In this document: in pieces, positions 20,958 through 44,520 of the stretch
Layout: each line of letters starts with the position of its first letter
Position numbering within the stretch: the first letter of the stretch is position 1
Made by a program: the position numbers and the translations under genes
The notes under the pieces: model-generated
What the model was told of the DNA's origin: nothing
What the model saw: only the letters and a program-made list of their open reading frames with translations
Database searches by the model: none
Virus record (IMG/VR): IMGVR_UViG_3300034082_001419
Coordinates: 32,001 to 96,000 of that record
Source: a virus
Reading direction: 5' to 3' (one strand)
DNA: 64,000 nt

Positions 20958-21974
20958 TTATAATAAACGCATGCTGTTATAGTTATAACTCTTAAACATG
21001 TCATAGTATTTAGCATATTGTGCTCTTCTGTTAGCCATCCATAAACCTTTCATTTCTGCAAAGTTTGGAGTATTAACAATTGATAAGGCATAGTTTCTTG
21101 CAACCTTAAGTCTTTGTTCTATAAGTTGTAACTTTTGAGATACATCTTCACCATTAAGATACAAGTTCTCAAATATTCTTTGTTTCATTGCATACTCATA
21201 GTATTCATTTATCTCATCATGATCAGGAACTAATAAGTTACCATCAGCATCTTCAAGTGCTCCTTGATAATTAAGATATATTTTACCGCATTCAAATGTA
21301 GTATGTAAGAATCCGTTTTTAATCCATGCTTCATTAGCTGCATTAATATATAAATTAGGACAATCACATTCAATTTCTTGAGATGCTTTAAATCTTAATG
21401 GTATTAAAGCTTCATATGTTCTTGTTTCACCTGTAGGCATAATTTGAATTAACTCAAATTGATCTCCTTTACAGTTAGAAAATACTCTAGGTCTTATACA
21501 AGTATCACCAAATGGATTAAGTGGATCATATCCTGGTACAACAACAGGGGAACAATCAGGAACATGTCCTTGACAAGCTACTGTATGATTACATGGATTA
21601 GCATTACATGTTGAACAGTTAACCGTTGGAGGAGCACATACATCTACTGAACCAGGTACTTCTACATATGGTACTTCCATTGTAGTTGTACCACCACTTC
21701 TATATCCTACTTGTTGTTTAAATGACCCACATATAGAACCAAAGTTCATAGTAAAGAAATCATCAGGTAGTTTTATCTTATGATGTTCTACCTCAAGAAT
21801 AACTTCTTTAGTCATATTAATTCTAAGACCTAAATCATATGTTACTCTCTTAGCAACTTTAATTAGTTGTTGAGGCTCTATCATATTTTCAAGAGCATAT
21901 GTATTTAAATCAATTGTAACATCTTCCAGTAACTGGTCAAATGTTCTAAACTTGAGTGTATAGTTAAAGTCCAT
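20958..21974 (-). CDS. Tail tubular/ring protein with Cys-rich insertion, 338 aa
   Basis: KIKLPDDF, GKIYLNYQG..ED.DGNLLVPD pattern of crAss-like ring proteins; position before stabilisation gene. Confidence 0.65.
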   Translation of the reverse strand: MDFNYTLKFRTFDQLLEDVTIDLNTYALENMIEPQQLIKVAKRVTYDLGLRINMTKEVILEVEHHKIKLPDDFFTMNFGSICGSFKQQVGYRSGGTTTMEVPYVEVPGSVDVCAPPTVNCSTCNANPCNHTVACQGHVPDCSPVVVPGYDPLNPFGDTCIRPRVFSNCKGDQFELIQIMPTGETRTYEALIPLRFKASQEIECDCPNLYINAANEAWIKNGFLHTTFECGKIYLNYQGALEDADGNLLVPDHDEINEYYEYAMKQRIFENLYLNGEDVSQKLQLIEQRLKVARNYALSIVNTPNFAEMKGLWMANRRAQYAKYYDMFKSYNYNSMRLL

Positions 21975-22645
21975 TATCTTAATGAGTTTTGACTATCATC
22001 AGGACCATTAGTAGGTACATTGATAGACATAGTTAATTCTTTTAATACATATTGTTCAATCTCCCCAAATAAATAATCTGGAAAAGGTAACTGATCATCA
22101 TTTCTAAATCTACACTCTTCTGTAGTATCACATGTAAAACCAGATATTGGATCTTCAAATACACCTTCAACTTTAATTGCTTCCCATTGTACATTAGGCA
22201 TATATAAGTAACCATTCAAATACCAAAAATATTTTCTAGTATTATATTTAAAACTTGTAACTTTAGTCATAGAAGAATAAGTACCTGGATCAGTTCTGAA
22301 TAACTCAACTGATGTATCTAATGAAGATACTGTACGTATAAGTGGTCCATTAATACCATCAAAAAACCTAGGTAGTTTTTCTTTAGTTCTTTTAATATAG
22401 CATCCAGATGTAATACCAACACATCCTGCTTCAACTTTATCTACATCCATTAACTCAACATAAGTCAATGTAGAAAATATTGAACTTATTTTCATTAACC
22501 TATTCTGGTTATCTTCTCTTTTTAATAAAGACTTACCATATTTAGATATTGCAAAATATATAGTTCTATCAGTTAAGAATGGATCTTCTTTAACTGCTTT
22601 AAGAGCATTTCTTACTCTTGATATTGCTTCACCAATTGTTGTCAT
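21974..22645 (-). CDS. Tail ring protein, 223 aa
   Basis: YFWYLNGYLY...IKVEGVFEDP pattern; translationally coupled to neighbours. Confidence 0.6.
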   Translation of the reverse strand: MTTIGEAISRVRNALKAVKEDPFLTDRTIYFAISKYGKSLLKREDNQNRLMKISSIFSTLTYVELMDVDKVEAGCVGITSGCYIKRTKEKLPRFFDGINGPLIRTVSSLDTSVELFRTDPGTYSSMTKVTSFKYNTRKYFWYLNGYLYMPNVQWEAIKVEGVFEDPISGFTCDTTEECRFRNDDQLPFPDYLFGEIEQYVLKELTMSINVPTNGPDDSQNSLR

Positions 22646-23229
22646 ATATCAAATTCATTATATGTTTTTAACTTATCTTTTTCTAAACCTTTAAAGTAAT
22701 CTTTTTGTCTAGATGCTGTAAACATTTTACGTATCTTCTTCATTGGTTCAACATGTATGTATATTGGCCAATTGGTTGAGTATGTTTTTGCTACTGATCT
22801 TTTAAATGTCCTACATCCTGTAAATGCCCAACACTCTCTATTAAGAAAATTATATTTTGTAGCATAGTTAGTATAAAATATTTTAGCTAATTTATTATCA
22901 GTTTCCCAGTTTGAGTTTGTAACTATAACACCATATTTCTTTGACTTACCAAAATCAATATTTCTTTTCTTACTTGTTTGGCATGTCCCAATAAATATAT
23001 TACCTAATCCTTCTGGCAACTGTACACCGTCTCTACTATCAATTACAGTTTCACAAAAAAGAGTATGAAAGTTAATGCATATTTTTCTTAAATCTTTATT
23101 AGCAATGTCTTTGTACTTAGGGTACTTTCTTCTAAATGCATTATAGAATTTAGTATCTAGAATGTGATGTACATCTTGTCTAAATCTTTTACCTTTTACA
23201 TCAGGTCCTTTAAATACTTTACTTTCCAT
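22642..23229 (-). CDS. IHF/HU-like basic DNA-binding protein, 195 aa
   Basis: Very basic; ETVIDSRDGVQLPEGLGNIFIG resembles the HU/IHF core; crAss-like phages carry IHF-like genes beside tail genes. Confidence 0.55.
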   Translation of the reverse strand: MESKVFKGPDVKGKRFRQDVHHILDTKFYNAFRRKYPKYKDIANKDLRKICINFHTLFCETVIDSRDGVQLPEGLGNIFIGTCQTSKKRNIDFGKSKKYGVIVTNSNWETDNKLAKIFYTNYATKYNFLNRECWAFTGCRTFKRSVAKTYSTNWPIYIHVEPMKKIRKMFTASRQKDYFKGLEKDKLKTYNEFDI

Positions 23230-23240
23230 ATCTTATATAT

Positions 23241-23248
23241 TAATATAC
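23241..23248 (-). promoter_or_regulatory. Putative phage promoter element GTATATTA
   Basis: Same octamer upstream of starts at 31678-31685, 49285-49292 and 59445-59452; variants at 27640 and 39468. Confidence 0.55.
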
Positions 23249-23310
23249 TAAAATTTTCAGACTTATAAAAGAATACAAGTCAAAACAAATATAGCACTTA
23301 TAAGTTACAT

Positions 23311-23347
23311 AAAAAAAATAACCCCGGTAATGAGCACATACCGGGGT
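23311..23347 (-). terminator. Rho-independent terminator
   Basis: 9-bp stem ACCCCGGTA/TACCGGGGT (23321-23347), 9-nt loop, followed on the minus strand by TATTTTTTTT. Confidence 0.85.
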
Positions 23348-23357
23348 CTTGTTGTCA

Positions 23358-23382
23358 GCCACAGAAACCAACAAACTGCGAC
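23358..23382 (-). other. Stem-loop with UUUGUUGGUUU loop in 3' UTR (candidate sRNA element or DGR target hairpin)
   Basis: Minus strand GUCGCAG-UUUGUUGGUUU-CUGUGGC; 7 bp including two G-U pairs that only form on the minus strand. Confidence 0.4.
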
Positions 23383-23388
23383 ATATTT

Positions 23389-25224
23389 TTAGTCTTGTAT
23401 TAATCTTACTGAATACCCATTTCTCTTATTGATGAGGTTTCTGTAAGCATTGCCATCGTTGTAGAACAAGTTGCGGCTCCAAGCATAGTTCGTATTGTCC
23501 TCCGTAGAACTCCACCAGTAACCGTTGTCGCCAATGTTGTTATTATTTCCATTAAATCCGTTGCGGAACCCGCCAGGAAGACCAGTAAATAAAGACGTAT
23601 TAGTTGCTCCTATATTTGGTGTTTGCCAATGAGTAAATCCTGTTTCTTTCATTGCTCCTCCAGCTGCTGCATTTCCTCCTAAAGTTGTAGTTAAAGTTGT
23701 CCATTCAGTATCTGAAGGTACATGGTAACCTGCTGGTGCCAATCCACCATTTGCTGTATTATTAACAGCATACCAGTTATACAATTTACCATAAACAGGT
23801 CCATTTGCTGAATCATTATTATACCAACACCACGCTCCTGTAGTTAAACCAGCCCATCCTGTTGGATCTGTTACTTCTGGAATTAATGTACCATCTCTAT
23901 ATCTATCAACATTTAAGTTACAACTTGTCCAAACTTGAGTTCCTATAGTAACATCTAGGCATGTTTCTTGTATAAATCTAACTGACAACCCAGCTCTCTT
24001 AAAGCCGCTGCCTCTGGAAGCATTGCCATTGGTGAAGTTCAAGACGCGGCCCCAAGCATTGTAGGCATCGTTCTCTGTAGAACTCCACCAGTAACCGTAG
24101 TAACCCATGAAGTTGTAAGTTCCACCGTAGTCGCGTTGACCGCCCGGAAGACCAGTAAATAATGAAGAATTAGTAGCATATAAATTAGGTGCATCCCAAT
24201 GACAAAAACCTTCTTCTTTCATCTTGCCTCCAGCTACAATTTCTCCACCTAGATAGTCGGTAAGAATTGTCCACTCAGCATCTGTTGGCACTTTCCATCC
24301 AGCAGGTGCAATACCTCCATTTGTAGTATTATTAATTGCATGCCAATTATAAAGTTTACCATATGTAGTTTCTGTAGAAGGATCATTATTATAATAGCAC
24401 CATGCTCCTGTTGTTAATGCTGACCAAGCATTATTATTCTCAACATATGGGATAAGTATACCATCTCTATATGTAGATACTGTTGCATTACACCTAGTCC
24501 AAACTTGAGTACCAATTGGAATATTTTGTTCTACACAATCTGGACATGGATCTATTGTATCTTCTATTAATCTTACAGAGCATCCAGTACGTTTAATGTT
24601 ATCACCACCACCAAAGAGACCATTGTAGTTGACCAAGAACATAGCCCTAGCAAAACCTGGATAAATATCATCTTCTGTAGTAGTCCACCAGATACCGTTT
24701 TCGCCAATGTAGTTGTAAGGCCCAAGCTGATCACGTTGTCCACCGGGAAGAGCTGTAAATAATGATGTGTTAGTTGCATCAGTATTAGGATTTATCCAAT
24801 GACAAAAACCTTCTTCTTTCATCTTGCCTCCAGCAATAAGACCTCCTCCTAAATTATCTCTTAGAACTAACCATTCAGCTTCAGAAGGAACATGATAGCC
24901 TGTTGGAGCAAGTTGTTTTCTTAATAAGGGATCAAGTAATGATGCTTCATCATAAATTCCTACTACTGCATACCAGTTGTATAACTTACCATATATGGCA
25001 TCATTAGCGGGATTATTATCATAATGACACCAAGCACCTGTTGTTGCTATTTCCCACTGATAATCATCAGTTATTTCAGGTATAACTGTTACACCATCTG
25101 AATATGTAGTTACATCTAAATTACATCCTGTCCATACTTGTCCATAAATATCTATATTATTTGGATCACAATTAGGACAATTATCTCTCCTTGTTCTATA
25201 TATATCTTTTTTAAAACTCCACAT
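23389..25224 (-). CDS. Three tandem Fib_succ_major (FISUMP, CLec-like) domains; probable DGR target/receptor-binding protein, 611 aa
   Basis: Three copies of IGTQVW..CN..V..YRDG...GAWC.Y.N...YGKLYNW.A...P.G.(H/K)VP...EW...LPGG.R...WW..TE...SVR. Confidence 0.9.
   Translation of the reverse strand: MWSFKKDIYRTRRDNCPNCDPNNIDIYGQVWTGCNLDVTTYSDGVTVIPEITDDYQWEIATTGAWCHYDNNPANDAIYGKLYNWYAVVGIYDEASLLDPLLRKQLAPTGYHVPSEAEWLVLRDNLGGGLIAGGKMKEEGFCHWINPNTDATNTSLFTALPGGQRDQLGPYNYIGENGIWWTTTEDDIYPGFARAMFLVNYNGLFGGGDNIKRTGCSVRLIEDTIDPCPDCVEQNIPIGTQVWTRCNATVSTYRDGILIPYVENNNAWSALTTGAWCYYNNDPSTETTYGKLYNWHAINNTTNGGIAPAGWKVPTDAEWTILTDYLGGEIVAGGKMKEEGFCHWDAPNLYATNSSLFTGLPGGQRDYGGTYNFMGYYGYWWSSTENDAYNAWGRVLNFTNGNASRGSGFKRAGLSVRFIQETCLDVTIGTQVWTSCNLNVDRYRDGTLIPEVTDPTGWAGLTTGAWCWYNNDSANGPVYGKLYNWYAVNNTANGGLAPAGYHVPSDTEWTTLTTTLGGNAAAGGAMKETGFTHWQTPNIGATNTSLFTGLPGGFRNGFNGNNNNIGDNGYWWSSTEDNTNYAWSRNLFYNDGNAYRNLINKRNGYSVRLIQD
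23416..23523 (-). repeat. DGR variable repeat in domain 3
   Basis: 108-nt ungapped match to 23989-24096; 26 mismatches, 23 with A in one copy, 24 at codon positions 1-2. Confidence 0.85.
23989..24096 (-). repeat. DGR variable repeat in domain 2 (internal)
   Basis: Partner of 23416-23523; NNC/NNT codons keep the third base while positions 1-2 vary. Confidence 0.85.
24570..24750 (-). repeat. Degenerate variable-repeat-like segment in domain 1
   Basis: Homologous position; retains C-ending codons (tac aac tac att ggc gaa aac ggt atc tgg tgg; ttc ttg gtc aac tac) but is more diverged and has an indel. Confidence 0.5.
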
Positions 25225-25226
25225 AT

Positions 25227-26021
25227 TTATACTTTTGTATTACCCAATAAATAATAGATAGATGATGTAGCTCCTTGTTCTAAATAAGCTTGATCATATT
25301 GACCTTTAATTTTATATCCAGTAATTGCATTATTTAATACTACACCTCCTGTAGTTATAAATGTAACATCAGCTGTTCCATCTTGAATAAAGCCTACTTG
25401 TAGTTTAGCTGATAATCCAGTTGGTACGGTAATAGAAATTGGAGTTGCACCGTTAGTTATTATTATTGAGTAACCATCATCAGCACTTGTAAGTAAATAG
25501 TTAGTTGAAATAAACTTTTGTTTTGTATCACAACAAGCTGAAAGATCATTTACAGTTGTTTGTAAAGTAGTTACATCTCCTTGTAAAGTTGTTATATCAC
25601 CTTGTATTGCAGTTACATCAGTTTGTAATGTTGTTACTGCACCTTGTAATGTTAATATTTGCCCATTAATTGTAACTATTTGTCCTTGTATAGTTACAAT
25701 TTGTCCTTGTATTGTAACAATATTACCTTCAATAGTAGTAAGTCTACCATTAATGATAAGTAATTGTGCATTAATAAAGTTAGTTAATGTAACAAGTCTT
25801 TGACAAAAATAAGTAACAATACCTTCTAATGCATCTACAATAGAATCTCCTTGAGAGACAACAGTATCATTACCACATTTGATATCATCAATTGTTAATA
25901 CCATACATTGTGCATCAAATACTTCAGCACATGGTTCTGGATTAGGACATTCTGGTGGAGTTGGACATGGTGGTAAAGATGGATAAGCATCATCACAACC
26001 ACAATTTATACAAGTATTCAT
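25227..26021 (-). CDS. Fibre-like protein: Cys-rich N-terminus, heptad coiled coil, C-terminal beta domain, 264 aa
   Basis: Heptads VTIQGQI / VTTLQTD repeated about 9 times (approx. 25550-25760). Confidence 0.65.
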   Translation of the reverse strand: MNTCINCGCDDAYPSLPPCPTPPECPNPEPCAEVFDAQCMVLTIDDIKCGNDTVVSQGDSIVDALEGIVTYFCQRLVTLTNFINAQLLIINGRLTTIEGNIVTIQGQIVTIQGQIVTINGQILTLQGAVTTLQTDVTAIQGDITTLQGDVTTLQTTVNDLSACCDTKQKFISTNYLLTSADDGYSIIITNGATPISITVPTGLSAKLQVGFIQDGTADVTFITTGGVVLNNAITGYKIKGQYDQAYLEQGATSSIYYLLGNTKV

Positions 26022-26044
26022 AGTATTTTATTATTAATTTTTAA

Positions 26045-27622
26045 TTAAAAAGCTCTTAGTGCACGTACTGCACAAGATGTTGTAGATTTATTAGTATAAC
26101 TTGTAGTTCCAAAGTCAAATGATTTTGTAATAGCTTCTGAAGCATTAAATTCTGTACTTGACCAATAAAGTTCATTTGCTGCAAGTACATCATAACCACC
26201 TACGGCATCTAATATTTTATTTACAATTGGTGCTACATTAAATAAATAGTTTAATTCCCATATAGCTGGTAAATACCAGTCTGTGAAACCACCATAAGTA
26301 TATATATCTGCTAATCCTGCTGCATATGTTCCAACTGCAGGTGCCCCTGTTTGTGCTACAATTGCATTAGTATTTGATAAACCATTATATCTATTTTTTG
26401 CACCAACACCTGGTACAGTTGTAGAATCATATGCGGGTATTGCCCATTCAATACCATAACTTAAATTAAAAAGTGAAGCAATTAATCCTTTTTCTATACC
26501 TGCTTCTTTCCATACTGCTATTACTATACCACCACCATATAGTTCACCTATATAATGTGTGAATGCTCCAGGCACTGTTACATCAACAGTAACATCACCA
26601 ACACCTGTTGTAGGAGTTAATGTTACATTTGTTCCAGCAATAATTTTTGTAACACCTCCATTAACCAATGGACTTGCTGGTGTTCCTAATCCTGTTATAG
26701 TTGTACCATCAACTGATATTTTAACTATTGGATTTAATGGATCTGTATTATCTGTGTTTAATCCTGTTACTGATCTTACAGTAGGCGCATTTCTTAAGTC
26801 TTTAACACAAGCCCATAAGTTATTTATTGTACCTGCAATTGTTGCTGTTGGTGTTGTCCATAAACCAGCGTACTGTGCAGACATTTGTGCAGCAGGATTA
26901 ACTTTTGATAAATCAGTTGCAGCTACTGTTTGATTAGAAACTGCTGTAGATAATGCTCCTGTATTTCCTGTTGCTGCAACAAATGGAAACCAAATTTGAT
27001 TTACATATGAATCAATAACAACATTAATAGGTTGTGTACTTCCTGCAGCTAATATTGGTACAGAAGGTAACTCATATGCCATTACCATTGTAGGTGTAGT
27101 ATATGAAGGAGGTGGTGTAGTTTCTAAATCAGTTACTCTTACATCTAGATTATCAATTTGATTTTGTTGTAATGTTATTGTAGTTACTAATGTACATATT
27201 CTTGTACCTATAGTAGTTACATAATTTGTTAAATTCATAGTTGTAACTCCACCTGTTACAAAACACGGAGCAACCTCAACAAAACAATCTGTAGGACAAC
27301 CTGATGATGGTACTGGTGGAGTTGCACCTCCTCCTGAACTTGGTGTTCCATTATCTAACTCACATACTTTAACAATTAAAAAATTAATTAAATCTGTAAA
27401 GTTTTGTGGAGAACAATTAGCTAAACTAAAACATGTAAGATCATATGCTGTAATATTTAATGTATCAAGTATTGTACATATTTCTAATGCAATTTTTTCA
27501 ACTACATCTGTAATATTATCTCCTTTACATAAATTAATACATTGTAAATCTGGTCCACCCCAAATTACACAATTTGAAGATGTAGGGCTACATGGAGAAT
27601 TATCAAAGTTTAATGGTTTCAT
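26045..27622 (-). CDS. Fibre-like structural protein with C-terminal DUF1566/Lcl-C-like domain, 525 aa
   Basis: Cys-rich N-terminus; C-terminal IGELYGGGIV...GGFTDWYLPAIWEL...YWSSTE...VRALRAF. Confidence 0.7.
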   Translation of the reverse strand: MKPLNFDNSPCSPTSSNCVIWGGPDLQCINLCKGDNITDVVEKIALEICTILDTLNITAYDLTCFSLANCSPQNFTDLINFLIVKVCELDNGTPSSGGGATPPVPSSGCPTDCFVEVAPCFVTGGVTTMNLTNYVTTIGTRICTLVTTITLQQNQIDNLDVRVTDLETTPPPSYTTPTMVMAYELPSVPILAAGSTQPINVVIDSYVNQIWFPFVAATGNTGALSTAVSNQTVAATDLSKVNPAAQMSAQYAGLWTTPTATIAGTINNLWACVKDLRNAPTVRSVTGLNTDNTDPLNPIVKISVDGTTITGLGTPASPLVNGGVTKIIAGTNVTLTPTTGVGDVTVDVTVPGAFTHYIGELYGGGIVIAVWKEAGIEKGLIASLFNLSYGIEWAIPAYDSTTVPGVGAKNRYNGLSNTNAIVAQTGAPAVGTYAAGLADIYTYGGFTDWYLPAIWELNYLFNVAPIVNKILDAVGGYDVLAANELYWSSTEFNASEAITKSFDFGTTSYTNKSTTSCAVRALRAF

Positions 27623-31708: not shown

Positions 31709-32206
31709 TTATTTTAAAAATAATAATTTGTACTTAGTTGAATTAATAGCATCTTTAATAAGATCTAAATTATTTACTATTTCTGAATAAGGTAGTTTAC
31801 CTTGTAATTTATTTATCATTGCATAAATATCTCTAAGATAATTTACACCATCTGCTACAGTGTCAAGAGTTCTTGGAGCAACATCTTTACAAGCTAAGAT
31901 TTTTTCAGAAACACCTTGATAACCTTCTATAAGAGTATCAGCATGTCCAGGTAGACCATCATAAAAATCTCCTATTGCTATATGTGCAGCATAAGATCCT
32001 TCACCAGTTACTTTTAAATGTAATTTATGAAAACTATTTCTTGCATTCATTAATTCCATAGCACATGCTGCAACCATTGTATCAAGAGAACTACCACCTA
32101 CACCTGAATCTATAATGGGTTCAGGTTTAGCTTGCTCAACTTTAGGTTGAGGTCTACTAATTTTTGTAGTATCAGTATTTCTTTTTAGCATTCTATTTTG
32201 TTCCAT
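31709..32206 (-). CDS. Ferritin/Dps-like four-helix protein (DUF5856-like), 165 aa
   Basis: HKLHLKV...SYAAHIAIGDFYD.L...ADTLIEGYQG...KYKL resembles the Dps-type H-x-x-H / H...D...E ligand pattern. Confidence 0.7.
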   Translation of the reverse strand: MEQNRMLKRNTDTTKISRPQPKVEQAKPEPIIDSGVGGSSLDTMVAACAMELMNARNSFHKLHLKVTGEGSYAAHIAIGDFYDGLPGHADTLIEGYQGVSEKILACKDVAPRTLDTVADGVNYLRDIYAMINKLQGKLPYSEIVNNLDLIKDAINSTKYKLLFLK

Positions 32207-36536: not shown

Positions 36537-38153
36537 TTAGAATGATCCACCAGTGATAGGATTTCTCATAACAATTTTCAATACTTTAGTTGGATCTTTA
36601 ACCCAAATAGCTGGCATTGTTTGAGACATCATTACACGGTAACCGTTGAATTGTCCAGAAGATTGGAATCCTTGAGATCTACCCATGTAATCCATTGTTC
36701 CATTTTGGTACCACCATTTCAATTGATTATCCCAAGATAATTTCAACATGTAAATGTTGTCATTAGTATTATCTGTGATATCAAAGATAATGAATGAGTA
36801 AGAAGATAATGGGAAACCATCAATGATTGGGTTCTCAATATCATTAGTGTGAACATTATCAAATGCAGGATTCAATACAAATTTCACATTAGCCAAGAAT
36901 GGTATAACGTAAGAAGTGTAAGAGAAACCAAAGTTTAAGTCCATACCTTTACCAGTGATAGCACCGATATCAGCAGCTTGAATCAATAAACCTGAAGAAA
37001 TAGCTTCTTGTTTAATTGCTTCATTAACCATTCTCATACCACCCATACCTGTTTGAACAACAAGTTGACGTTTAGGATCTGGTCCTTGGAACTCAACCTT
37101 ACCATTGAAGAAGTTATATAACTCTCCTCTGAATAAATCTAAGTTGAAGTTGTTTTTGTTGTAGATACGTTTGAAAGAGTTATCTAACTGTTTCCACAAA
37201 CCTACTGATAATCTTACATCATCTGGTCCGTCTTGACGTACTCTACCCCCGTGACCCCACATAAGGTAAGTCTCAATATCAGAAGCAATCTTAGTTAAGT
37301 GAGCAGCCTCCATGTTAGTTAAGAAAGTTCTTGATAAATCACCATTATCAAATGCTTTTTTAACTGAGTCTTTACCCATTACTTTAACCATATCATCCAA
37401 AGATGAAATAGATGGATCTAATCCTTTCAAGTGAGATCTCCAGATTTCAGTTACAGGAACTGTACCATCTGCATTCATACCACCTTTGATCATTAAATCT
37501 GCTCTAGAAGAGATAGAGTAATGAACGTGAGCTTCAGCACCACCAACAAAGTTATAGTATTCACGGAATCCTGTGTTAGTTTGGATGTCTGAGAATCTCT
37601 CACCATACTCACCTCTAGCAGAACCTTTACGGAATACTTTAGTACCATTAGCTAAATAAGCATTATCAATGTACTTGTAGTTATCATTGTTAACTAACTG
37701 AACTGTATAGATAAATCCATCACCAATTGGTAAGATATCATCTGCAGTAATGTACATCTCAACTCCATTGTATTTGTCATAGGTAATAATATCACCATGT
37801 CCAAATTCTCTTTTGTTAAGTTTGATTTTGAAAGTTGTACCTTCAATACCTTTAGCTGAGTTGTTAGGCTCAATATCTTCTACTATGTAAGGAAGATCAA
37901 TTGATACCGGAGTTTGCCATTTGTACTCACCTCTTGCGTTATCTACATTGATAACATTTTTTCCACCAAAAGAAGACAACTGGTATAAAGGCATTTCAAC
38001 TTTTTGAGCCATAGCCCATAAGTCTACTGGACCTAAATCCATTGGTTCTGCATCTTTTAGCATGTTTTGTAAATGGTAAGAATCAACATGTGAACTAGCA
38101 TTGTATGCCGTATCACGTAGGAAAATACCATTATTTAATACTGGAGTTGCCAT
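36537..38153 (-). CDS. Major capsid protein (crAss-like), 538 aa
   Basis: Order terminase-portal-scaffold-this gene; GEYKW, LMWGHG...GLWKQL, TGMGG, KDPTK motifs; codon usage enriched in AAC/TTC/ATC; strong terminator behind. Confidence 0.85.
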   Translation of the reverse strand: MATPVLNNGIFLRDTAYNASSHVDSYHLQNMLKDAEPMDLGPVDLWAMAQKVEMPLYQLSSFGGKNVINVDNARGEYKWQTPVSIDLPYIVEDIEPNNSAKGIEGTTFKIKLNKREFGHGDIITYDKYNGVEMYITADDILPIGDGFIYTVQLVNNDNYKYIDNAYLANGTKVFRKGSARGEYGERFSDIQTNTGFREYYNFVGGAEAHVHYSISSRADLMIKGGMNADGTVPVTEIWRSHLKGLDPSISSLDDMVKVMGKDSVKKAFDNGDLSRTFLTNMEAAHLTKIASDIETYLMWGHGGRVRQDGPDDVRLSVGLWKQLDNSFKRIYNKNNFNLDLFRGELYNFFNGKVEFQGPDPKRQLVVQTGMGGMRMVNEAIKQEAISSGLLIQAADIGAITGKGMDLNFGFSYTSYVIPFLANVKFVLNPAFDNVHTNDIENPIIDGFPLSSYSFIIFDITDNTNDNIYMLKLSWDNQLKWWYQNGTMDYMGRSQGFQSSGQFNGYRVMMSQTMPAIWVKDPTKVLKIVMRNPITGGSF

Positions 38154-39555: not shown

Positions 39556-42309
39556 TTATTTCTTCTTATTATCTGTTTTACTTTTTGTATCAAACTTGTT
39601 CTTATTTTCTCTAGCAATCTGTAATTGTTTATCTGCTATAGACTGTTGAACTTGTAGTTTTTCTCTTTCAAGTTGATTCTTTTGACCATCTGCAGACATA
39701 CGGTTAGACTCTTTTTGTCTTTCTAAACTCATTTGACTAGTAAATTGTTCAGACTTTTGTATATCTCTCATACTATCAGTAAAGTCTGACATTTGATTTT
39801 GATTAATATCTTGAGTAGCACCAAATCCTGCAGCTCTAATTTCAGCAACAAGTATATCTCTTTGTCTATCTTTCTCTGCTCTCATATCTGCACCCTCAGC
39901 TTTAAGTTTTTCTTCTTGAGCTTTAGCCTGTAATGCTTGATCTTGCATTTGTTGTTGATGTTGCATTTCTTGATCTTTCTGAGCTTTAATTTTAGCTTCA
40001 GAATCTTTAAGCACTGTATTTAACTCAGCAATACTTTCTGATTGTACTAATTTACCTAAGTCATATATTGATGCACCAGTAGTATTATTGTTTAATGCCA
40101 TACCTTTTAACTGCTCAAGTACTGCTCTATAGTTTGCTTTAGTTGTAGCAAATATATTCAAGTCTCTCATAAGTAAATCTGTTCCATTAATCTGGAAGTT
40201 TACTTTCTCATCTGCTGCTGTAACATAAGTTAATCTTGCAGAAGGTTTTGTTGAGTGATAGAATTGAGCTAAGTCAGTTCTCATTTGATGTACTCTTGGC
40301 ATTAAGTAATCAGAGTGTTGCATAAAGTACATTTCAGTCTGTGCATATGATGCTCCTACTGCTTGTTCAACGCCTGTTGCAGTTTGTTGAGAAAGTTGTT
40401 GACCCATTCTTTGTGGATTAATACCTATAACTTCATATGCTTGTTGTTTCATATATGTAGCTAACTGTATTCTTGACATTAACCTTGATGTTTGTTCAAG
40501 GTCTAATTTTTGAAAGTGCTGAAAGTTTAATGCATTCTCTGTATTAGTTATAGATGTATCTAATGGTAACATCTGGAAGTTCTTCATAGCTACATAAGCT
40601 TTAGCTAAGTTGTTCTTACCCCAGTCTTCACCCATTGAGTGTCTTGGTAATGCATTCTGATCTAGTAGTATTACTGTACCTAGTTCGTCAACAAGGATAT
40701 CCGCTATTTGATTGTTTACTATATTGTATCCTATCTGAAATGGTTTCATTAAATCAATCAATGCTGTAGACTTAGTATTTCTATCTGAGAATACTGCACC
40801 CTCTACTGGTAACTTACAACCATATATAGAGTTATCTCCTTTAAATTGAAATCTTAATGGACCTATGTTTTGTTTATCTATACCAATATATAGTGGCGTA
40901 AATCCACCTGGATTATTCATACCCCAGAATGATGGAATATTTGGTCCAACTTTTATACCTCCCCATACTTCATTAATCCATATCCAATCAATGTGCTCTC
41001 CATATACTAAATTGTCTTTAGTCTTGTTCTTGAAGAGTCTTGTATCATATATTGGATTATCAGTTACTTTATAGTCTTCAGTTACTATTTCAGTTATTAC
41101 TTCACCTGAGTCAGTAATTTTAGTTAAGTGACCTACTTTTCTTTGAGATTTCCAGTATCCTGTAGTTACTCTCAATAAGTATGCAGTACCTTGGTCATAA
41201 TAATCTTCACCTTCTCTTAAAATATAATTGATTATATCTCCACTGTTAAAGATATTATTAGCTGCAGCTGTAGAGTATTGACGCATACCTAATGAAGGCA
41301 TATTAGTATTCCAGTCATGAGACTTAGTAGCATCATAAAAAGATCCGTCATTCTGTACACCACCAATATTATATCCTGCAGATCTAATTGGATAGATAGC
41401 TTCTAATGATGCCATCTGATCCTCATTCATCATATACCCATACTTATCAATAACATCAGCTACTGTTAGCATGTCTGTTTTACCAACCCAGTTAGATTGA
41501 GATATATATCTAGCATCAGGAGATTTGTGATAGAATGTAAGTACAGGATTCCATAATTCAACATCATAATCATCTTCCATCATACGCATATGCCAGAACT
41601 CTCTATCTGTAATAAGCATATCTCTGAATCCTCTTTCTTCTAACTCATCCATTCTAAATCTTTCAACATCAACTTCATGTTGGTGAGTAGCCCACTGTTC
41701 AACCATTGATCTGTAATCCTTTTTAAAGAATTGTTCAATCTCAGGTAATGATTTAAGTTTATCAGGATTTAATTGTTGTTGTGCTTCTTCAGATTCAGGA
41801 TCAAGACCTTGTTCTACCATTGCTGCAATAATCTTCATGCTTGCATCAGACATAAGCACATCTTCTACCATTTGTCTTTTTTGCTCCATCATCTCATTAT
41901 AAGATCCTTCATCAACTGCACGGTATGATAACTTACTTGATCTTTTAGCAAACTCAGCTACAAGAACATTAATAACATTTGGGATGATAGGATAAAACTT
42001 TAACTCAAGTGCAGATGCATCTTCTTTAGTAAGAGTTTCAATTATATCTCTATAATCATTATCTTCTTCAACTATATAATCAGATTTATCTATAACACCT
42101 TTTGCTAATTTGTAGTTCTTCATTAACCTACGGGCATTTCTTTTAATCTGTTTAAGACCATTCCACTCTAACCAGTCAAGATTCCAAGCAGCCCACTTAT
42201 CATCCTTTTCTTTTTTAGGTATAAATTGTAAAGGTTGAGTTATACTACCTAATCTATTGTGTTCTGTTTTGGCACCCTTTTTTAATTGTAAACTGTTATA
42301 TACTTGCAT
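39556..42309 (-). CDS. Portal protein, 917 aa
   Basis: Follows terminase; FYPIIPNVINVL..E, WINEVW.G.K, SLIDLMKP.Q..YN-like motifs; Q-rich coiled-coil C-terminus. Confidence 0.88.
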   Translation of the reverse strand: MQVYNSLQLKKGAKTEHNRLGSITQPLQFIPKKEKDDKWAAWNLDWLEWNGLKQIKRNARRLMKNYKLAKGVIDKSDYIVEEDNDYRDIIETLTKEDASALELKFYPIIPNVINVLVAEFAKRSSKLSYRAVDEGSYNEMMEQKRQMVEDVLMSDASMKIIAAMVEQGLDPESEEAQQQLNPDKLKSLPEIEQFFKKDYRSMVEQWATHQHEVDVERFRMDELEERGFRDMLITDREFWHMRMMEDDYDVELWNPVLTFYHKSPDARYISQSNWVGKTDMLTVADVIDKYGYMMNEDQMASLEAIYPIRSAGYNIGGVQNDGSFYDATKSHDWNTNMPSLGMRQYSTAAANNIFNSGDIINYILREGEDYYDQGTAYLLRVTTGYWKSQRKVGHLTKITDSGEVITEIVTEDYKVTDNPIYDTRLFKNKTKDNLVYGEHIDWIWINEVWGGIKVGPNIPSFWGMNNPGGFTPLYIGIDKQNIGPLRFQFKGDNSIYGCKLPVEGAVFSDRNTKSTALIDLMKPFQIGYNIVNNQIADILVDELGTVILLDQNALPRHSMGEDWGKNNLAKAYVAMKNFQMLPLDTSITNTENALNFQHFQKLDLEQTSRLMSRIQLATYMKQQAYEVIGINPQRMGQQLSQQTATGVEQAVGASYAQTEMYFMQHSDYLMPRVHQMRTDLAQFYHSTKPSARLTYVTAADEKVNFQINGTDLLMRDLNIFATTKANYRAVLEQLKGMALNNNTTGASIYDLGKLVQSESIAELNTVLKDSEAKIKAQKDQEMQHQQQMQDQALQAKAQEEKLKAEGADMRAEKDRQRDILVAEIRAAGFGATQDINQNQMSDFTDSMRDIQKSEQFTSQMSLERQKESNRMSADGQKNQLEREKLQVQQSIADKQLQIARENKNKFDTKSKTDNKKK

Positions 42310-42315
42310 ATCTTT

Positions 42316-44520
42316 TTATTTTAAATTTTTAAATGGTGACCTGTTTAATTTTTTATTTTCACCCAATCCACTTCTACCCATATGTCTAAAAGGACTACTC
42401 TTTAAGGTATATAAATTTTTTTGATTTTCCAACTTTTTACTTGCATCATCCATCACTACTCTTTTAGCATAACCTATATTTGCTTGCTGTATTTTAACAA
42501 AAGATACCAGTGCAGCAAAAGCTACAAGTCTATCCACGTTGACACCATCCTGATAAGCTTGCATTTCTTTAAGTAACATGATGTCTGGTATACGTTCAAC
42601 ACCATAGTTTATCTTTACTGTAGTACCATCATCTTTTTGTATATGATCTATTTCTTCTGTAAGATAGTCAATAGTATAACTAATCATGTGATTTTTAAAT
42701 AATGTTCCCGTATTTCTCCAACCATACTCCTGGAATACGTTAGCATTTGCACCTACATCTTTTAAAAATACTATCTGATTTCTTGGTACCAAGTATCTTT
42801 GTTTTTTTCTAGCTAACATATGATTGATAAACTGAGAGATATTATTCTCAACAATTGTAAAGGCATTATACCATTCAATTATAAGTTCAAGTCTTTCATG
42901 TGTTTTATTTATATCATCAAATCTACCACACCAAGCAGCTACAATCTTATCTCTTTCTATAAAAGTCTCTGCTTCACCATTAGTAACTTTAGTCACTTCA
43001 ACCGGTGCTTTCATTACATATATAGAACATAGTGATTCTGAGGTAGTTGTCTTACCCTCTGCAACAGGGTCAATTGATGCATAGTACATTCCATATGTAG
43101 GATCAGGTACTGGTCTTTCCCATACTACTAATGTACCTGTTTTATCTTCTGTCTTTTTAGATATAGGAAACTCTGCAATAGGTAATTTACTTGTACCTTT
43201 TACTTTTACTTTACCTGTTTCATCTCTTGATATATCTAAATATTCTGAAGAGTATTCTTTTTCTTCAATTCTTCTTAATTGTGCATTAACTAAATGAGGA
43301 GGAAACTTAGATGCTTTTCTAAATGCAAATGCCTCTTCTATATTTCTTGGATGCTGTGATACTTCAAGTTGATAATCTTTAGCTTCCTTATTTTTCTTTA
43401 TCTCAGCAAAGTATTCATCAAGTGCAATCAGTGCTTCTTTTACAAGACTATTACCATAGTCATCTATGTATGGAGGCATTGACCATTGTTCAGGAATAAA
43501 TAATCCTGATTTACCCCATGTATTTTCTTTATCAATTAGATTAGTCTCTACTGCGTATATATCATTGCTATTAGGATCAAGTATCATTTTCTTTAATGGC
43601 TCACATTGATCCAAATCTCCAACTGATCCTGCTGCTATAAACATACCAGTAGTCATCATCCCTGATTTAAGTGCTGGTTTAATATATCCAAATGTAGTAT
43701 CCATCTTAGGAGCAATACCAGCTTCCTCATGAAAGAAGAACTTAACCGGTCCCCCTACACCATTTGTTGGATCTTTCTCAAAAGACATACCTTGCATAGT
43801 ACCTTTTAAACCTGCTTCAGTTTTTCTATCTCCTCTTCTGACTTCAATCTTTTGTTGCCACATCATGACCTTGTCTGGAGACATAGGTCTATACCATGCC
43901 GTGTGCTCATTTAAGAATGCTGCATATTCAGATAAGAATTTCCATGTACCTTTTTCATTAATGTAATCTTTTAGGGAGGCACCCATCTTTAAAGTAACCC
44001 CTGCTTCAAACCATAACTGATTAATAAGCTTACCTGCATGAAAGTATGAAGATGCTATCTGACGTTTTTTAAGAATAGCTACGTGCATGTAGTTTACTTC
44101 TGCAAGTATTTCATACATGGCCATATGATATTGAGCATCTCTGATTTTTGCAAATCCAAAGTTCTGCTCCTCCTTATCAAAGATAGGTAAGAAATTTAAC
44201 CACATGTAATAATCTCTTGTGAGGAACCAAGTCTTATTACCATTCTTAACAATTACACCTAATCTACACTTAGCTTTTTGATCATCCCAGTAATTAATAA
44301 AATCCTTAGATTTAAATGGTGCAACACAGTATACCTTGTCTTTATTAAATTTAGTTGACTCAGCATTAAATATCTTATTAGTTACTTCATCAAATTCATA
44401 TAAACCTGGTTCTTTAAATATTGAGAATAAAAAGTCACCAAAATCTTTTCTACTATCAAAAGATGTAGTAGTCCAAGTACCATTATCCCAAGTTGGTATA
44501 TCTGAATATATATTTTCCAT
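42316..44520 (-). CDS. terL: Terminase large subunit, 734 aa
   Basis: Walker A variant ILKKRQIASSY, Walker B FFFHEEAG, nuclease YYASIDP, IVENN, NVDRLVA. Confidence 0.92.
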   Translation of the reverse strand: MENIYSDIPTWDNGTWTTTSFDSRKDFGDFLFSIFKEPGLYEFDEVTNKIFNAESTKFNKDKVYCVAPFKSKDFINYWDDQKAKCRLGVIVKNGNKTWFLTRDYYMWLNFLPIFDKEEQNFGFAKIRDAQYHMAMYEILAEVNYMHVAILKKRQIASSYFHAGKLINQLWFEAGVTLKMGASLKDYINEKGTWKFLSEYAAFLNEHTAWYRPMSPDKVMMWQQKIEVRRGDRKTEAGLKGTMQGMSFEKDPTNGVGGPVKFFFHEEAGIAPKMDTTFGYIKPALKSGMMTTGMFIAAGSVGDLDQCEPLKKMILDPNSNDIYAVETNLIDKENTWGKSGLFIPEQWSMPPYIDDYGNSLVKEALIALDEYFAEIKKNKEAKDYQLEVSQHPRNIEEAFAFRKASKFPPHLVNAQLRRIEEKEYSSEYLDISRDETGKVKVKGTSKLPIAEFPISKKTEDKTGTLVVWERPVPDPTYGMYYASIDPVAEGKTTTSESLCSIYVMKAPVEVTKVTNGEAETFIERDKIVAAWCGRFDDINKTHERLELIIEWYNAFTIVENNISQFINHMLARKKQRYLVPRNQIVFLKDVGANANVFQEYGWRNTGTLFKNHMISYTIDYLTEEIDHIQKDDGTTVKINYGVERIPDIMLLKEMQAYQDGVNVDRLVAFAALVSFVKIQQANIGYAKRVVMDDASKKLENQKNLYTLKSSPFRHMGRSGLGENKKLNRSPFKNLK

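Follow-up and report, generated by a model that had tools for sequence, protein, structure and literature searches.

Two of the three tandem domains of a 611-aa phage protein end in regions (VR2 and VR3) that are, judged by their sequence, genuine DGR variable regions (VRs). The phage appears to carry them as orphans, with neither reverse transcriptase (RT), Avd nor template repeat (TR) detected in its complete genome. We favour, at a probability of about 0.6, the reading that they do not vary at present and are the traces of a DGR which this genome has lost or never had. All coordinates below refer to the window, the whole stretch of 64,000 nucleotides that was analysed (positions 32,001 to 96,000 of virus record IMGVR_UViG_3300034082_001419).

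The 611-aa protein matches Pfam PF09603 in three stretches (E=6.4e-106, 353 bits versus a cut-off of 33.9), and its relatives are named in their sources as 'TIGR02145 family' or 'FISUMP' (Fib_succ_major, PF09603; TIGR02145). The Fib_succ_major Pfam family has been assigned a C-type-lectin-like fold (PMC5758913; this and the other papers are cited from excerpts). The gene lies in a structural module with terminase, portal, major head and virion proteins (PHROGs), and its product is predicted to be a virion protein of the receptor-binding type with three tandem C-type-lectin-like domains. Both the Pfam stretches and the domain alignment place VR2 and VR3 each at the end of a Fib_succ_major domain. 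VR2, which closes domain 2, is internal to the protein, as had been proposed. The features are as follows.

23389-25224, minus strand: gene of the three-domain protein, an ORF of 611 aa; virion (tail-fibre-type) protein with tandem Fib_succ_major lectin-type domains
24529-25158 (approximate limits), minus strand: domain 1, from the domain alignment; C-terminal part no longer TR-like
24674-24718, minus strand: TR-derived relic in domain 1, 84.4% identical over 45 nt to the TR of bacterial locus L176
24796-24834, minus strand: 39-nt stretch of domain 1, identical to 24196-24234 of domain 2
23978-24159, minus strand: VR2, internal, closing domain 2; ungapped match to the L176 TR, 75.3% identical over 182 nt; GC3 0.65
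23989-24096, minus strand: 108-nt core of VR2, the segment first noticed; ungapped alignment to the VR3 core
23965-23988, minus strand: 3' flank of VR2, the domain's last strand and the expected place of an IMH-type element; phage-type A/T-ending codons
23415-23589, minus strand: VR3, in domain 3 and at the protein end; 82.9% over 175 nt, with one 3-nt gap, to the L176 TR; GC3 0.65-0.70
23416-23523, minus strand: 108-nt core of VR3, the segment first noticed; ungapped alignment to the VR2 core
23392-23415, minus strand: 3' flank of VR3, in phage-type codons
23311-23346, minus strand: hairpin rich in G+C, downstream of the 611-aa gene, with a T run after it; the same downstream stretch is kept in the relative L008

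The original prediction rested on the ungapped alignment of the two 108-nt cores, in which it counted 26 mismatches, 23 with A in one copy and 24 at codon positions 1-2, and saw no synonymous C/T change. Our recount bore this out: the mismatches fall 14/10/2 at codon positions 1/2/3, and the two third-position changes are A/G and C/G. The cores are real, although the VRs are longer than had been noted, at 182 nt for VR2 and 175 nt for VR3. The enrichment in GC and in C-ending codons is real as well, with a GC3 of 0.65-0.70 in the VR windows versus 0.00-0.30 in the rest of the gene, and these GC3 islands coincide with the TR-homologous blocks.

As a control from the same gene, we compared the cores with the N-terminal parts of the same domains. 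The presence of A in one copy is by itself a weak indicator, seen at 23/26 mismatches in the core versus 94/136 in the N-terminal part (p=0.03). Third positions make up 63 of 136 mismatches in the N-terminal part versus 2 of 26 in the core (p=9e-5). Codons for the same amino acid differ synonymously between domains 2 and 3 in 35 of 87 cases in the N-terminal part and in 2 of 24 in the C-terminal part (Fisher p=0.002). Across related domains, synonymous change is 0.12-0.37 in the VR parts versus 0.31-0.62 outside them. In each of 13 independent TRs of Bacteroidota DGRs, which are proxy templates and none of them cognate to VR2 or VR3, adenines stand at 23-25 of the 26 mismatch positions (hypergeometric p 1.3e-8 to 6.3e-11). 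We assign VR2 and VR3 a DGR origin because their mismatch positions coincide with TR adenines, a coincidence that was tested and without which the assignment would fail. The mismatch pattern is significant both against the same-gene controls and by the TR adenines.

The nearest TR among the matches listed is that of L176, a DGR locus on a bacterial chromosome. Within the 108-nt core, VR2 matches 57 and VR3 56 of its 59 non-A positions (95-97%; shuffled-genome maximum 27), and the mismatches to it fall mostly on A (25 of 28 for VR2, 15 of 17 for VR3). Similarity to L176 exceeding general domain homology begins at the 5' end of the TR, and the variable positions of both VRs are NNY-only codons. 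The codons TTG, GCT and AGA of a phage-specific scaffold are present in both. Clean identity between VR2 and VR3 starts at a 22-nt perfect stretch, and their 5' thirds hold an indel and non-A differences. The proposal that both were written from one template is supported, the reconstructed template being the same as the L176 TR in 26 of the 30 codons listed (compared by eye). Over the final 22 nt of the comparison with the L176 TR, a proxy and not the cognate template, VR2 has 8 non-A mismatches and VR3 has 11. The hairpin at 23311-23346 is present after VR3 only, with none after VR2, and is most simply a putative terminator of the 611-aa gene.

Domain 1 retains the decayed third VR that had been suspected. 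Besides the 45-nt trace at 84% to the TR, its VR-equivalent part shows synonymous differences of 0.60-0.80 to all other domains, and GC3 is 0.50 at the relic, dropping to 0.15 downstream. The 39-nt tract common to domains 1 and 2 is a local conversion tract, and also an assembly hazard; in the two-domain variant protein P0003, domains 1 and 2 are joined exactly at this tract. A further VR was considered in the neighbouring gene at 26045-27622, which has a DUF1566/Lcl_C-type C-terminus, and was rejected, as it has neither a GC3 island nor the NNY pattern.

The phage genome is complete at 121,494 bp: it has direct terminal repeats, and CheckV estimates its completeness at 100. The original prediction had reported RT and TR to be absent from the window, over 23 kb on one side of the gene and 39 kb on the other, and had suggested searching for a DGR-clade RT and for a copy of the template; neither was found in the complete genome. 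There was no RVT_1 match anywhere in the 121,494 bp, in a search that reads through stops and found 5/5 RT-bearing viral control records, one with an RT containing five in-frame TAG. The VR sequences detected no TR and no third VR copy in the genome at word size 7, the next best matches being 18-20 nt long with E of at least 0.055. No match to bAvd (PF22296) was found in the genome either, with a weak control (1/14 control genomes, below the cut-off). Self-BLAST of the genome and 79 related loci gave 662 repeat pairs, none a convincing VR/TR pair; a 65% one-sided-A filter left six short pairs, of which a 99-nt tandem in L030 (13/20) was the largest. No RT turned up in any of 79 related viral records.

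The template family, together with bAvd and RT, occurs on chromosomes of freshwater Bacteroidota. VR/TR pairs stand with bAvd and RT at loci L095, L100, L104, L123, L158 and L176, and the contig of the last also encodes LptD, an amidase, an S46 peptidase and spermidine synthase. A scan of genome_contigs gave at least 17 TR-like sequences among at least 133 matches, and among the matches listed this TR family accompanies RTs on bacterial contigs only. A match to VRs of this family was present in 20 of 301 genomes of L176's family. Cognate bacterial VR/TR pairs have 0-5 non-A differences over the whole 169 nt. With the L176 RT as query, no relatives were found in viral contigs, and the L104 RT found nine loci there at 35-42% identity. 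An alignment of seven RTs found 80 viral loci at 36-57% identity, of which none carried this TR family in the fetched flanks and none was related to the phage. A 57-nt pattern for the cognate TR, with N at variable sites, had 0 matches in viral_contigs, genome_contigs and metagenome_contigs, and a 45-nt scaffold pattern had 0 in metagenome_contigs; these patterns fix bases common to VR2 and VR3, so that a TR with A at such a site would escape and the negatives are weaker than they look. Genome G032, whose VR (locus L122) was the bacterial VR nearest to the phage scaffold by a first measure, has an RT, but the TR of this RT is not cognate to the L122 VR.

Related phages differ in this gene. The closest relative, L008, is a complete 117.9-kb record with flanking virion proteins 95.6-97.8% identical to those of our phage, and its orthologue of the 611-aa protein is a two-domain protein, 49% identical, with no TR-like VR. 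The presence of VRs would be a lineage-specific gain or loss, and the gene has been replaced wholesale between close relatives. Genome lengths of the relatives are similar (117.9, 121.7 and 128.8 kb). Equally clean VRs, with 55-56 of 59-62 positions matched, occur on five related phage contigs (L002, L005, L007, L016 and L083), and among the matches listed all seven phage VRs are closest to one bacterial TR, that of L176. Contig L083 comes from a complete RT-less phage genome, G010, whose VR equals the L176 TR through all 22 nt of the 3' recognition part. The similarity of this VR to L176 is limited to the 187-nt TR block; the TR is the better match, at 81%, with the bacterial VR at 70%. An exact 45-nt stretch from the 3' end of the 611-aa gene had 0 matches in viral_contigs, and the INPHARED phage collection gave four distant matches at 30-35%.

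VR2 and VR3 look static in the sampled populations. The phage was found in 24 lake metagenome runs, and contigs with 0 differences from three other lake metagenomes span VR3 (runs X9 and X14) and VR2 (X9, X11 and X14). No listed variant lies inside VR2 or VR3 at the contig level, and both are unchanged in P0003; rare variants are lost from Logan contigs, and such consensus constancy is compatible with diversification at low frequency. Hypervariability of the VRs was not seen in the sampled contigs or in P0003. A strain seen in run X20, its flanks about 98.6% identical over 852 nt (12 differences), leaves the VR-containing parts of the gene nearly uncovered, and is a close strain with a different version of the 611-aa gene.

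We weighed four other explanations. In ordinary divergence of paralogous domains, with positive selection acting on binding residues after gene conversion, no DGR is needed, and in this A+T-rich gene 69% of inter-domain mismatches have A anyway, which makes the A count originally reported only weakly significant. However, this account does not yield mismatches that coincide with adenines in independent TRs (p<=1.3e-8), a 95-97% match to the non-A positions of a bacterial TR, NNY-only codons within sharp GC3 islands, or the low synonymous change of VR parts across the family. The TR-adenine coincidence and the non-A match effectively refute it, and we regard it as very improbable. It is just as hard to believe that the phage has a DGR of its own that escaped detection because the assembly has a gap or because the RT is recoded, split by an intron or divergent. 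In crAss-like phages, RT genes may contain in-frame amber codons or unusual motifs (PMC12386605), but our RT search found the control gene with such codons, and the lack of a TR copy in the genome is a result independent of the RT. The terminal repeats, the completeness of 100 and the similar length of relatives also count against a gap.

The original prediction read the VRs as combinatorial diversification by a remote or trans-acting DGR, or else as captured or fossil domains diversified earlier. For the former, a DGR on another replicon, most simply the chromosome of a putative Bacteroidota host, would still write mutagenised cDNA into VR2 and VR3 during infection, and the RT-less phage would rely on it to vary an adhesin with two sites. 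Consistent with this, TRs of this family accompany RTs only on bacterial contigs among the matches listed and were found at none of the 80 RT-bearing viral loci; all seven phage VRs are nearest to the L176 TR; the VR of RT-less G010 keeps the bacterial 22-nt recognition part exactly; and Avd, TR and RT have been reported to function in trans from a plasmid (PMC5758913). Yet we found no positive evidence for ongoing diversification. The VRs are identical in the contigs of three other lake metagenomes and in P0003, three pattern designs found no cognate TR in the viral, genome and metagenome collections, and the 3' parts differ, with 8 and 11 non-A mismatches in the last 22 nt versus 0-5 over 169 nt for cognate pairs. 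Diversification in trans is possible but unlikely. We put forward with the same reserve the broader idea that bacterial chromosomal DGRs write into receptor-binding genes of infecting RT-less phages (cross-replicon mutagenic homing). If it is true, a whole family of lake phages keeps lectin-domain VRs tuned to host TRs and borrows host hypermutation. The two tandem VRs of our phage, and the G010 VR with its exact bacterial 22-nt recognition part, hint at this. In recombinational capture, the VR cores would have been diversified in a host or another phage and swapped in by short-patch homologous recombination, with no reverse transcription in the history of the phage gene. Gene conversion does act here, as the 39-nt tract indicates, and the onset of clean VR2-VR3 identity at the 22-nt perfect stretch, with an indel and non-A differences in the 5' thirds, points the same way, as do the frequency of such VRs in bacteria (20/301) and the wholesale replacement of the gene between close relatives. 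However, the island of foreign composition is co-extensive with the TR block and has the same 3' stop in both VRs, which is the footprint expected of cDNA replacement and not of crossovers at arbitrary sites. Furthermore, VR2 and VR3 have private scaffold changes in common, so both would have to derive from targets of one TR. Capture alone seems to us quite doubtful.

Captured or fossil domains fit the data better than diversification in trans, and our preferred reading remains that VR2 and VR3 are static orphans. In domains 2 and 3, the terminal ~180 nt were copied from one TR by adenine-mutagenic reverse transcription, AAY codons of the template becoming NNY codons in the VRs, and the two would now act as fixed, different binding surfaces on one protein. 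We infer two possible routes. A cassette that once served either this gene or that of a donor phage may have been lost; or the segment may have come from the DGR family of the host, by past trans homing or by short-patch recombination in the conserved scaffold. Several observations count against the preferred reading. With 2-3 non-A differences in 59, the scaffolds of VR2 and VR3 have hardly decayed, while the domain 1 equivalent has, so the writing of VR2 and VR3 is recent. With clean VRs on five related contigs and an RT in 0/79 records, repeated recent RT loss is not parsimonious, and a still-active outside source would be simpler. The loss of rare variants from Logan contigs and the strain of run X20 also count against it.

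In the Bordetella phage BPP-1, the receptor-binding protein Mtd likewise has a lectin-fold VR written from AAY template codons, but BPP-1 has its own avd-TR-brt cassette beside a single C-terminal VR. Chromosomal Bacteroidota DGRs (category 'd', with CLec2 VRs and Fib_succ_major/DUF1566 targets; Wu et al. 2018, PMC5758913) use the same target domain family as our phage. The Bacteroidota loci L176, L104, L095, L100, L123 and L158 resemble it in VR scaffold, in AAY-rich template codons and in changes confined to adenines. In these loci, target, bAvd, TR and RT adjoin and the VR equals the TR through its 3' end, whereas the phage has VRs only, two in one ORF, with 3' flanks in phage-type codons. 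Epsilon crAss-like phages come close, with many genomes in which the VR-bearing protein persists although the RT is 'fragmented or deleted' (Babkin et al. 2024, PMC11054128). The likeness, which extends to incomplete cassettes of alpha/delta crAss-like phages (PMC11054128), lies in a lectin-type VR kept in a receptor-binding protein. Those crAss-like phages have relatives with full cassettes, and conserved TRs are reported for the complete ones (PMC11054128); here, an RT was found in none of 79 related records, there is no genomic TR, and the nearest TR among the matches listed is bacterial.

Several VRs in one ORF are known from 31 DGRs (Yan et al. 2019, PMC6642488), and Marichromatium purpuratum has three VRs in three tandem FGE-sulfatase paralogues (Schillinger et al. 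2012, PMC3521204). As in our phage, tandem paralogous ligand-binding domains end in VRs of one TR, at least one of them internal; those ORFs differ in having their own DGR beside them and in being of the FGE-sulfatase rather than the Fib_succ_major type (PMC3521204, PMC6642488). Remote targets in Treponema and Legionella-type lineages also have a VR far from the RT, implying trans action within the cell (Wu et al. 2018, PMC5758913). Those targets share a genome with their DGR, whereas in our case a phage has the VRs, and a bacterial chromosome the nearest TR among the matches listed. Wu et al. argue against expecting remote targets where a DGR is phage-associated (PMC5758913). The literature already has both single ORFs with tandem VRs and crAss-like phages that lack an RT but encode a VR-bearing protein. 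We found no description of phage VRs whose only matching TRs are bacterial, in literature excluding the supplementary tables of PMC5758913, PMC6642488 and PMC8144416, which may list such cases or more multi-VR ORFs. RT-less VRs are uncatalogued because DGR surveys start from the RT; for instance, Roux et al. 2021 assigned targets per RT (PMC8144416).

The phages described here carry clean DGR footprints in complete RT-less genomes, with matching templates on bacterial chromosomes of the likely host phylum. If they are fossils, the VRs show how phages keep and shuffle lectin modules diversified earlier, and the loss of a DGR could be dated from them. Ongoing writing in trans, or capture from hosts, would represent a new channel of phage-host co-evolution, through which strictly lytic phages could gain DGR-type variability.

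The source record (121,494 bp, with the window as its bases 32001-96000) carries direct terminal repeats, and its completeness is estimated at 100. Its three-domain lectin gene, whose 611-aa protein matches Pfam Fib_succ_major in three stretches (E=6.4e-106), is part of a virion module, with neighbours assigned by PHROGs. VR2 and VR3 are the variable regions (VRs) ending domains 2 and 3; L176 is a bacterial diversity-generating retroelement (DGR) with a template repeat (TR).

Features of the module (window positions)
20958-22645, virion structural proteins (PHROGs)
23389-25224, minus strand, three-domain lectin gene (ORF, 611 aa)
23415-23589, minus strand, VR3 (BLAST to the L176 TR, 82.9% of 175 nt)
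23978-24159, minus strand, VR2 (BLAST to the L176 TR, 75.3% of 182 nt)
25227-26021, minus strand, fibre-like coiled-coil protein, 264 aa (PHROGs)
26045-27622, minus strand, neighbouring 525-aa protein with a C-terminal Lcl_C/DUF1566-like domain
36537-38153, major head protein (PHROGs)
39556-42309, portal (PHROGs)
42316-44520, terminase (PHROGs)

The 264-aa protein contains a run of near-perfect heptad-like repeats of the TIQGQIV type, has weak PHROGs matches to tail needle and tail proteins, and is probably a trimeric shaft carrying the lectin protein. The 525-aa neighbour is a second virion protein of lectin type (33.9 bits, slightly below the Pfam cut-off of 34.9); it was rejected as a further VR carrier because the VR signature is absent and its codons are of ordinary phage type. 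Domains 1 and 2 of the lectin gene are exactly identical over 39 nt (24796-24834 and 24196-24234) and ~66% identical elsewhere; this stretch is a gene-conversion tract. The two domains are fused there in P0003, a 411-aa form of the protein from a 2.5-kb contig; this form either represents a deletion variant or may have collapsed in assembly.

Comparison within the gene confirmed the original prediction of tandem DGR-type segments in one protein. The 108-nt cores of VR2 and VR3 (23989-24096 and 23416-23523) align without gaps and with 26 mismatches, 23 with A in one copy and 24 at codon positions 1-2. Between domains 2 and 3, the N-terminal 143 aligned codons comprise 52 identical, 35 synonymous and 56 non-synonymous pairs, versus 22, 2 and 20 among the C-terminal 44. 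The C-terminal parts are thus deficient in synonymous changes (p=0.002, Fisher) and in third-position changes (p=9e-5, Fisher); the difference in the share of A-involving mismatches is weaker (p=0.03, Fisher). Third-position G+C is 0.65-0.70 in the VR2 and VR3 segments versus 0.00-0.30 in the remaining gene.

A scaffold pattern from these segments, searched against species-representative genomes, matched more than 120 loci at least, nearly all in MAGs of freshwater Bacteroidota; 17 of the 133 matches listed are TR-like. Five loci have two matches ~740 bp apart and are textbook VR/TR pairs.

VR/TR differences falling on template adenines at bacterial DGR loci
L123, 31 of 31
L158, 39 of 41
L095, 31 of 34
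L100, 24 of 26
L104, 31 of 50 (the alignment slips frame upstream)

In L104 and L176 the gene order is target, accessory gene bAvd, TR and reverse transcriptase (RT). L176 is a fragment of bacterial chromosome, with genes for LptD, an amidase, an S46 peptidase and a spermidine synthase adjoining. Matches occur in 20 of 301 genomes of its taxonomic family, where the only TR is L176's own copy (the other genomes are incomplete MAGs). The nineteen besides L176's own genome (L298-L326) hold template-family VRs matching 45-56 of 59 non-A positions, with no TR found among the scored matches; in G033, VR-type copies lie on two contigs and no RT was found. These absences may reflect incomplete MAGs, or orphan VRs may be frequent in bacteria as well.

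The DGR origin of VR2 and VR3 is established. In 13 independent TRs, adenine stands at 23-25 of the 26 positions at which the two VRs differ (p 1.3e-8 to 6.3e-11). The L176 TR is the nearest among the matches listed, and VR3 and VR2 match it at 56 and 57 of 59 non-A positions; the best match in a shuffled genome is 27. The template deduced beforehand from the window agrees with this TR at 26 of 30 listed codons (compared by eye). Both homology blocks begin at the TR 5' end (BLAST), and because private scaffold changes are common to both VRs, they were written from one template. In domain 1, TR homology spans 45 nt only and synonymous sites of the C-terminal part are strongly diverged. That no DGR was involved at all is very improbable.

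The absence of an RT and TR, originally noted for the window, extends to the complete 121-kb genome, in which neither RVT_1 nor bAvd has a match and the VR sequence does not occur a third time. The RT search recovered five of five positive controls in viral records, one with five in-frame TAG codons. A cis DGR that was present but missed is likewise very improbable. Pattern searches of viral, genome and metagenome collections found no cognate TR; these patterns fix bases common to both VRs, and a TR with A at such sites would escape them.

Relatives of the lectin protein occur on 79 viral loci, and their records contained no RT (0 of 30, including 10 with a completeness of 90% or more, and 0 of 49). 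Of the 59-62 non-A positions in bacterial TRs, 55-56 are matched by the VRs of five related phage contigs (L002, L005, L007, L016 and L083). In four of these five, and also at L010 in the G010 record, the flanking virion genes are shared with the window (40-65% amino-acid identity). L083 is part of G010, a complete 128.8-kb record without RT, and carries a small lectin-domain gene with an internal orphan VR (L083:10445-10640, 109.6 kb into G010); this VR is also orphan because its sequence is single-copy there. Its 3' part equals the L176 TR exactly over 22 nt. Similarity to L176 is limited to the 187 nt of the TR block, and the TR is a closer match to this VR than is the bacterial VR. Among the matches listed, the L176 TR is closest to all seven phage VRs, and the TR family is absent from 80 RT-bearing viral loci, within the flanks compared (RTs 36-57% identical to the family's). 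At conserved residues of the phage genes and bacterial targets, synonymous differences are 0.31-0.62 in N-terminal parts versus 0.12-0.37 in VR parts, as expected from a conserved family of templates. In the multi-domain relative at L002:11600-12400, internal domains have AGT/NNT-rich, VR-like stretches that depart from the scaffold pattern at 2-3 positions and may be older VRs in partial decay.

The closest complete relative, L008 (record G008, 117.9 kb), has flanking virion proteins 95.6-97.8% identical and a conserved region with a terminator downstream of the lectin gene. Its orthologue (L008:10030-11300) is two-domain, 49% identical and without TR-like VRs, so the gene is replaced as a cassette.

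We saw no sign of ongoing diversification of the phage gene in the contigs of four runs or in P0003, where both VRs are unchanged. The region is present, always as contigs, in 24 runs, nearly all lake-water metagenomes; in the four compared with the window, contigs with zero differences cover the whole of VR3 (X9, X14) and of VR2 (X9, X11, X14), and none of the variants listed lies inside either VR. The VR sequences are thus constant in the sampled contigs, and the DGR is absent from the complete genome. Ongoing writing in trans, as originally suggested, is unproven and unlikely, and orphan or fossil VRs are currently the likelier interpretation; the DGR-written tandem VRs themselves withstood the 13-TR test. 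Continued activity is favoured by the almost undecayed VR scaffolds, by the L008 orthologue, whose divergence despite its close flanks indicates rapid turnover of the lectin gene, and by a strain in run X20 with ~98.6% identical flanks, whose contigs barely cover the VR-bearing parts. X20 is a wetland or soil metagenome; within 22000-27000, cover is nearly nil over the C-terminal third of each lectin domain. Against continued activity, the 3' parts of VR2 and VR3 have phage-type codons, with 8 and 11 non-A differences from the L176 TR in the last 22; cognate bacterial VR/TR pairs show 0-5 over 169 nt.

Capture through recombination alone is somewhat less probable still than writing in trans. 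We favour, at a probability of roughly 0.6, the reading that VR2 and VR3 are orphans and static at present. They could have arisen by loss of a cassette that once served the phage gene or a donor phage's gene, by homing of a host DGR into the gene in the past, or by short-patch recombination.

Parts of this arrangement have precedents. Fib_succ_major/DUF1566 proteins form a recognised class of DGR targets, and remote targets and trans action from a plasmid have been described (PMC5758913). Marichromatium has three VRs in tandem paralogues of one ORF (PMC3521204), and 31 DGRs have several VRs per ORF (PMC6642488). Some crAss-like phages are reported in which a receptor-binding protein bears a VR and the RT is fragmented or deleted (PMC11054128; also PMC12386605). 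The literature searched gave no account of complete RT-less phage genomes with clean VRs whose matching templates are only bacterial-chromosomal. According to a preprint, VRs of Bacteroides targets were uniformly C-terminal (10.1101/2024.11.15.621889). The phage protein described here is encoded by one ORF with two DGR-written VRs, one of them internal.
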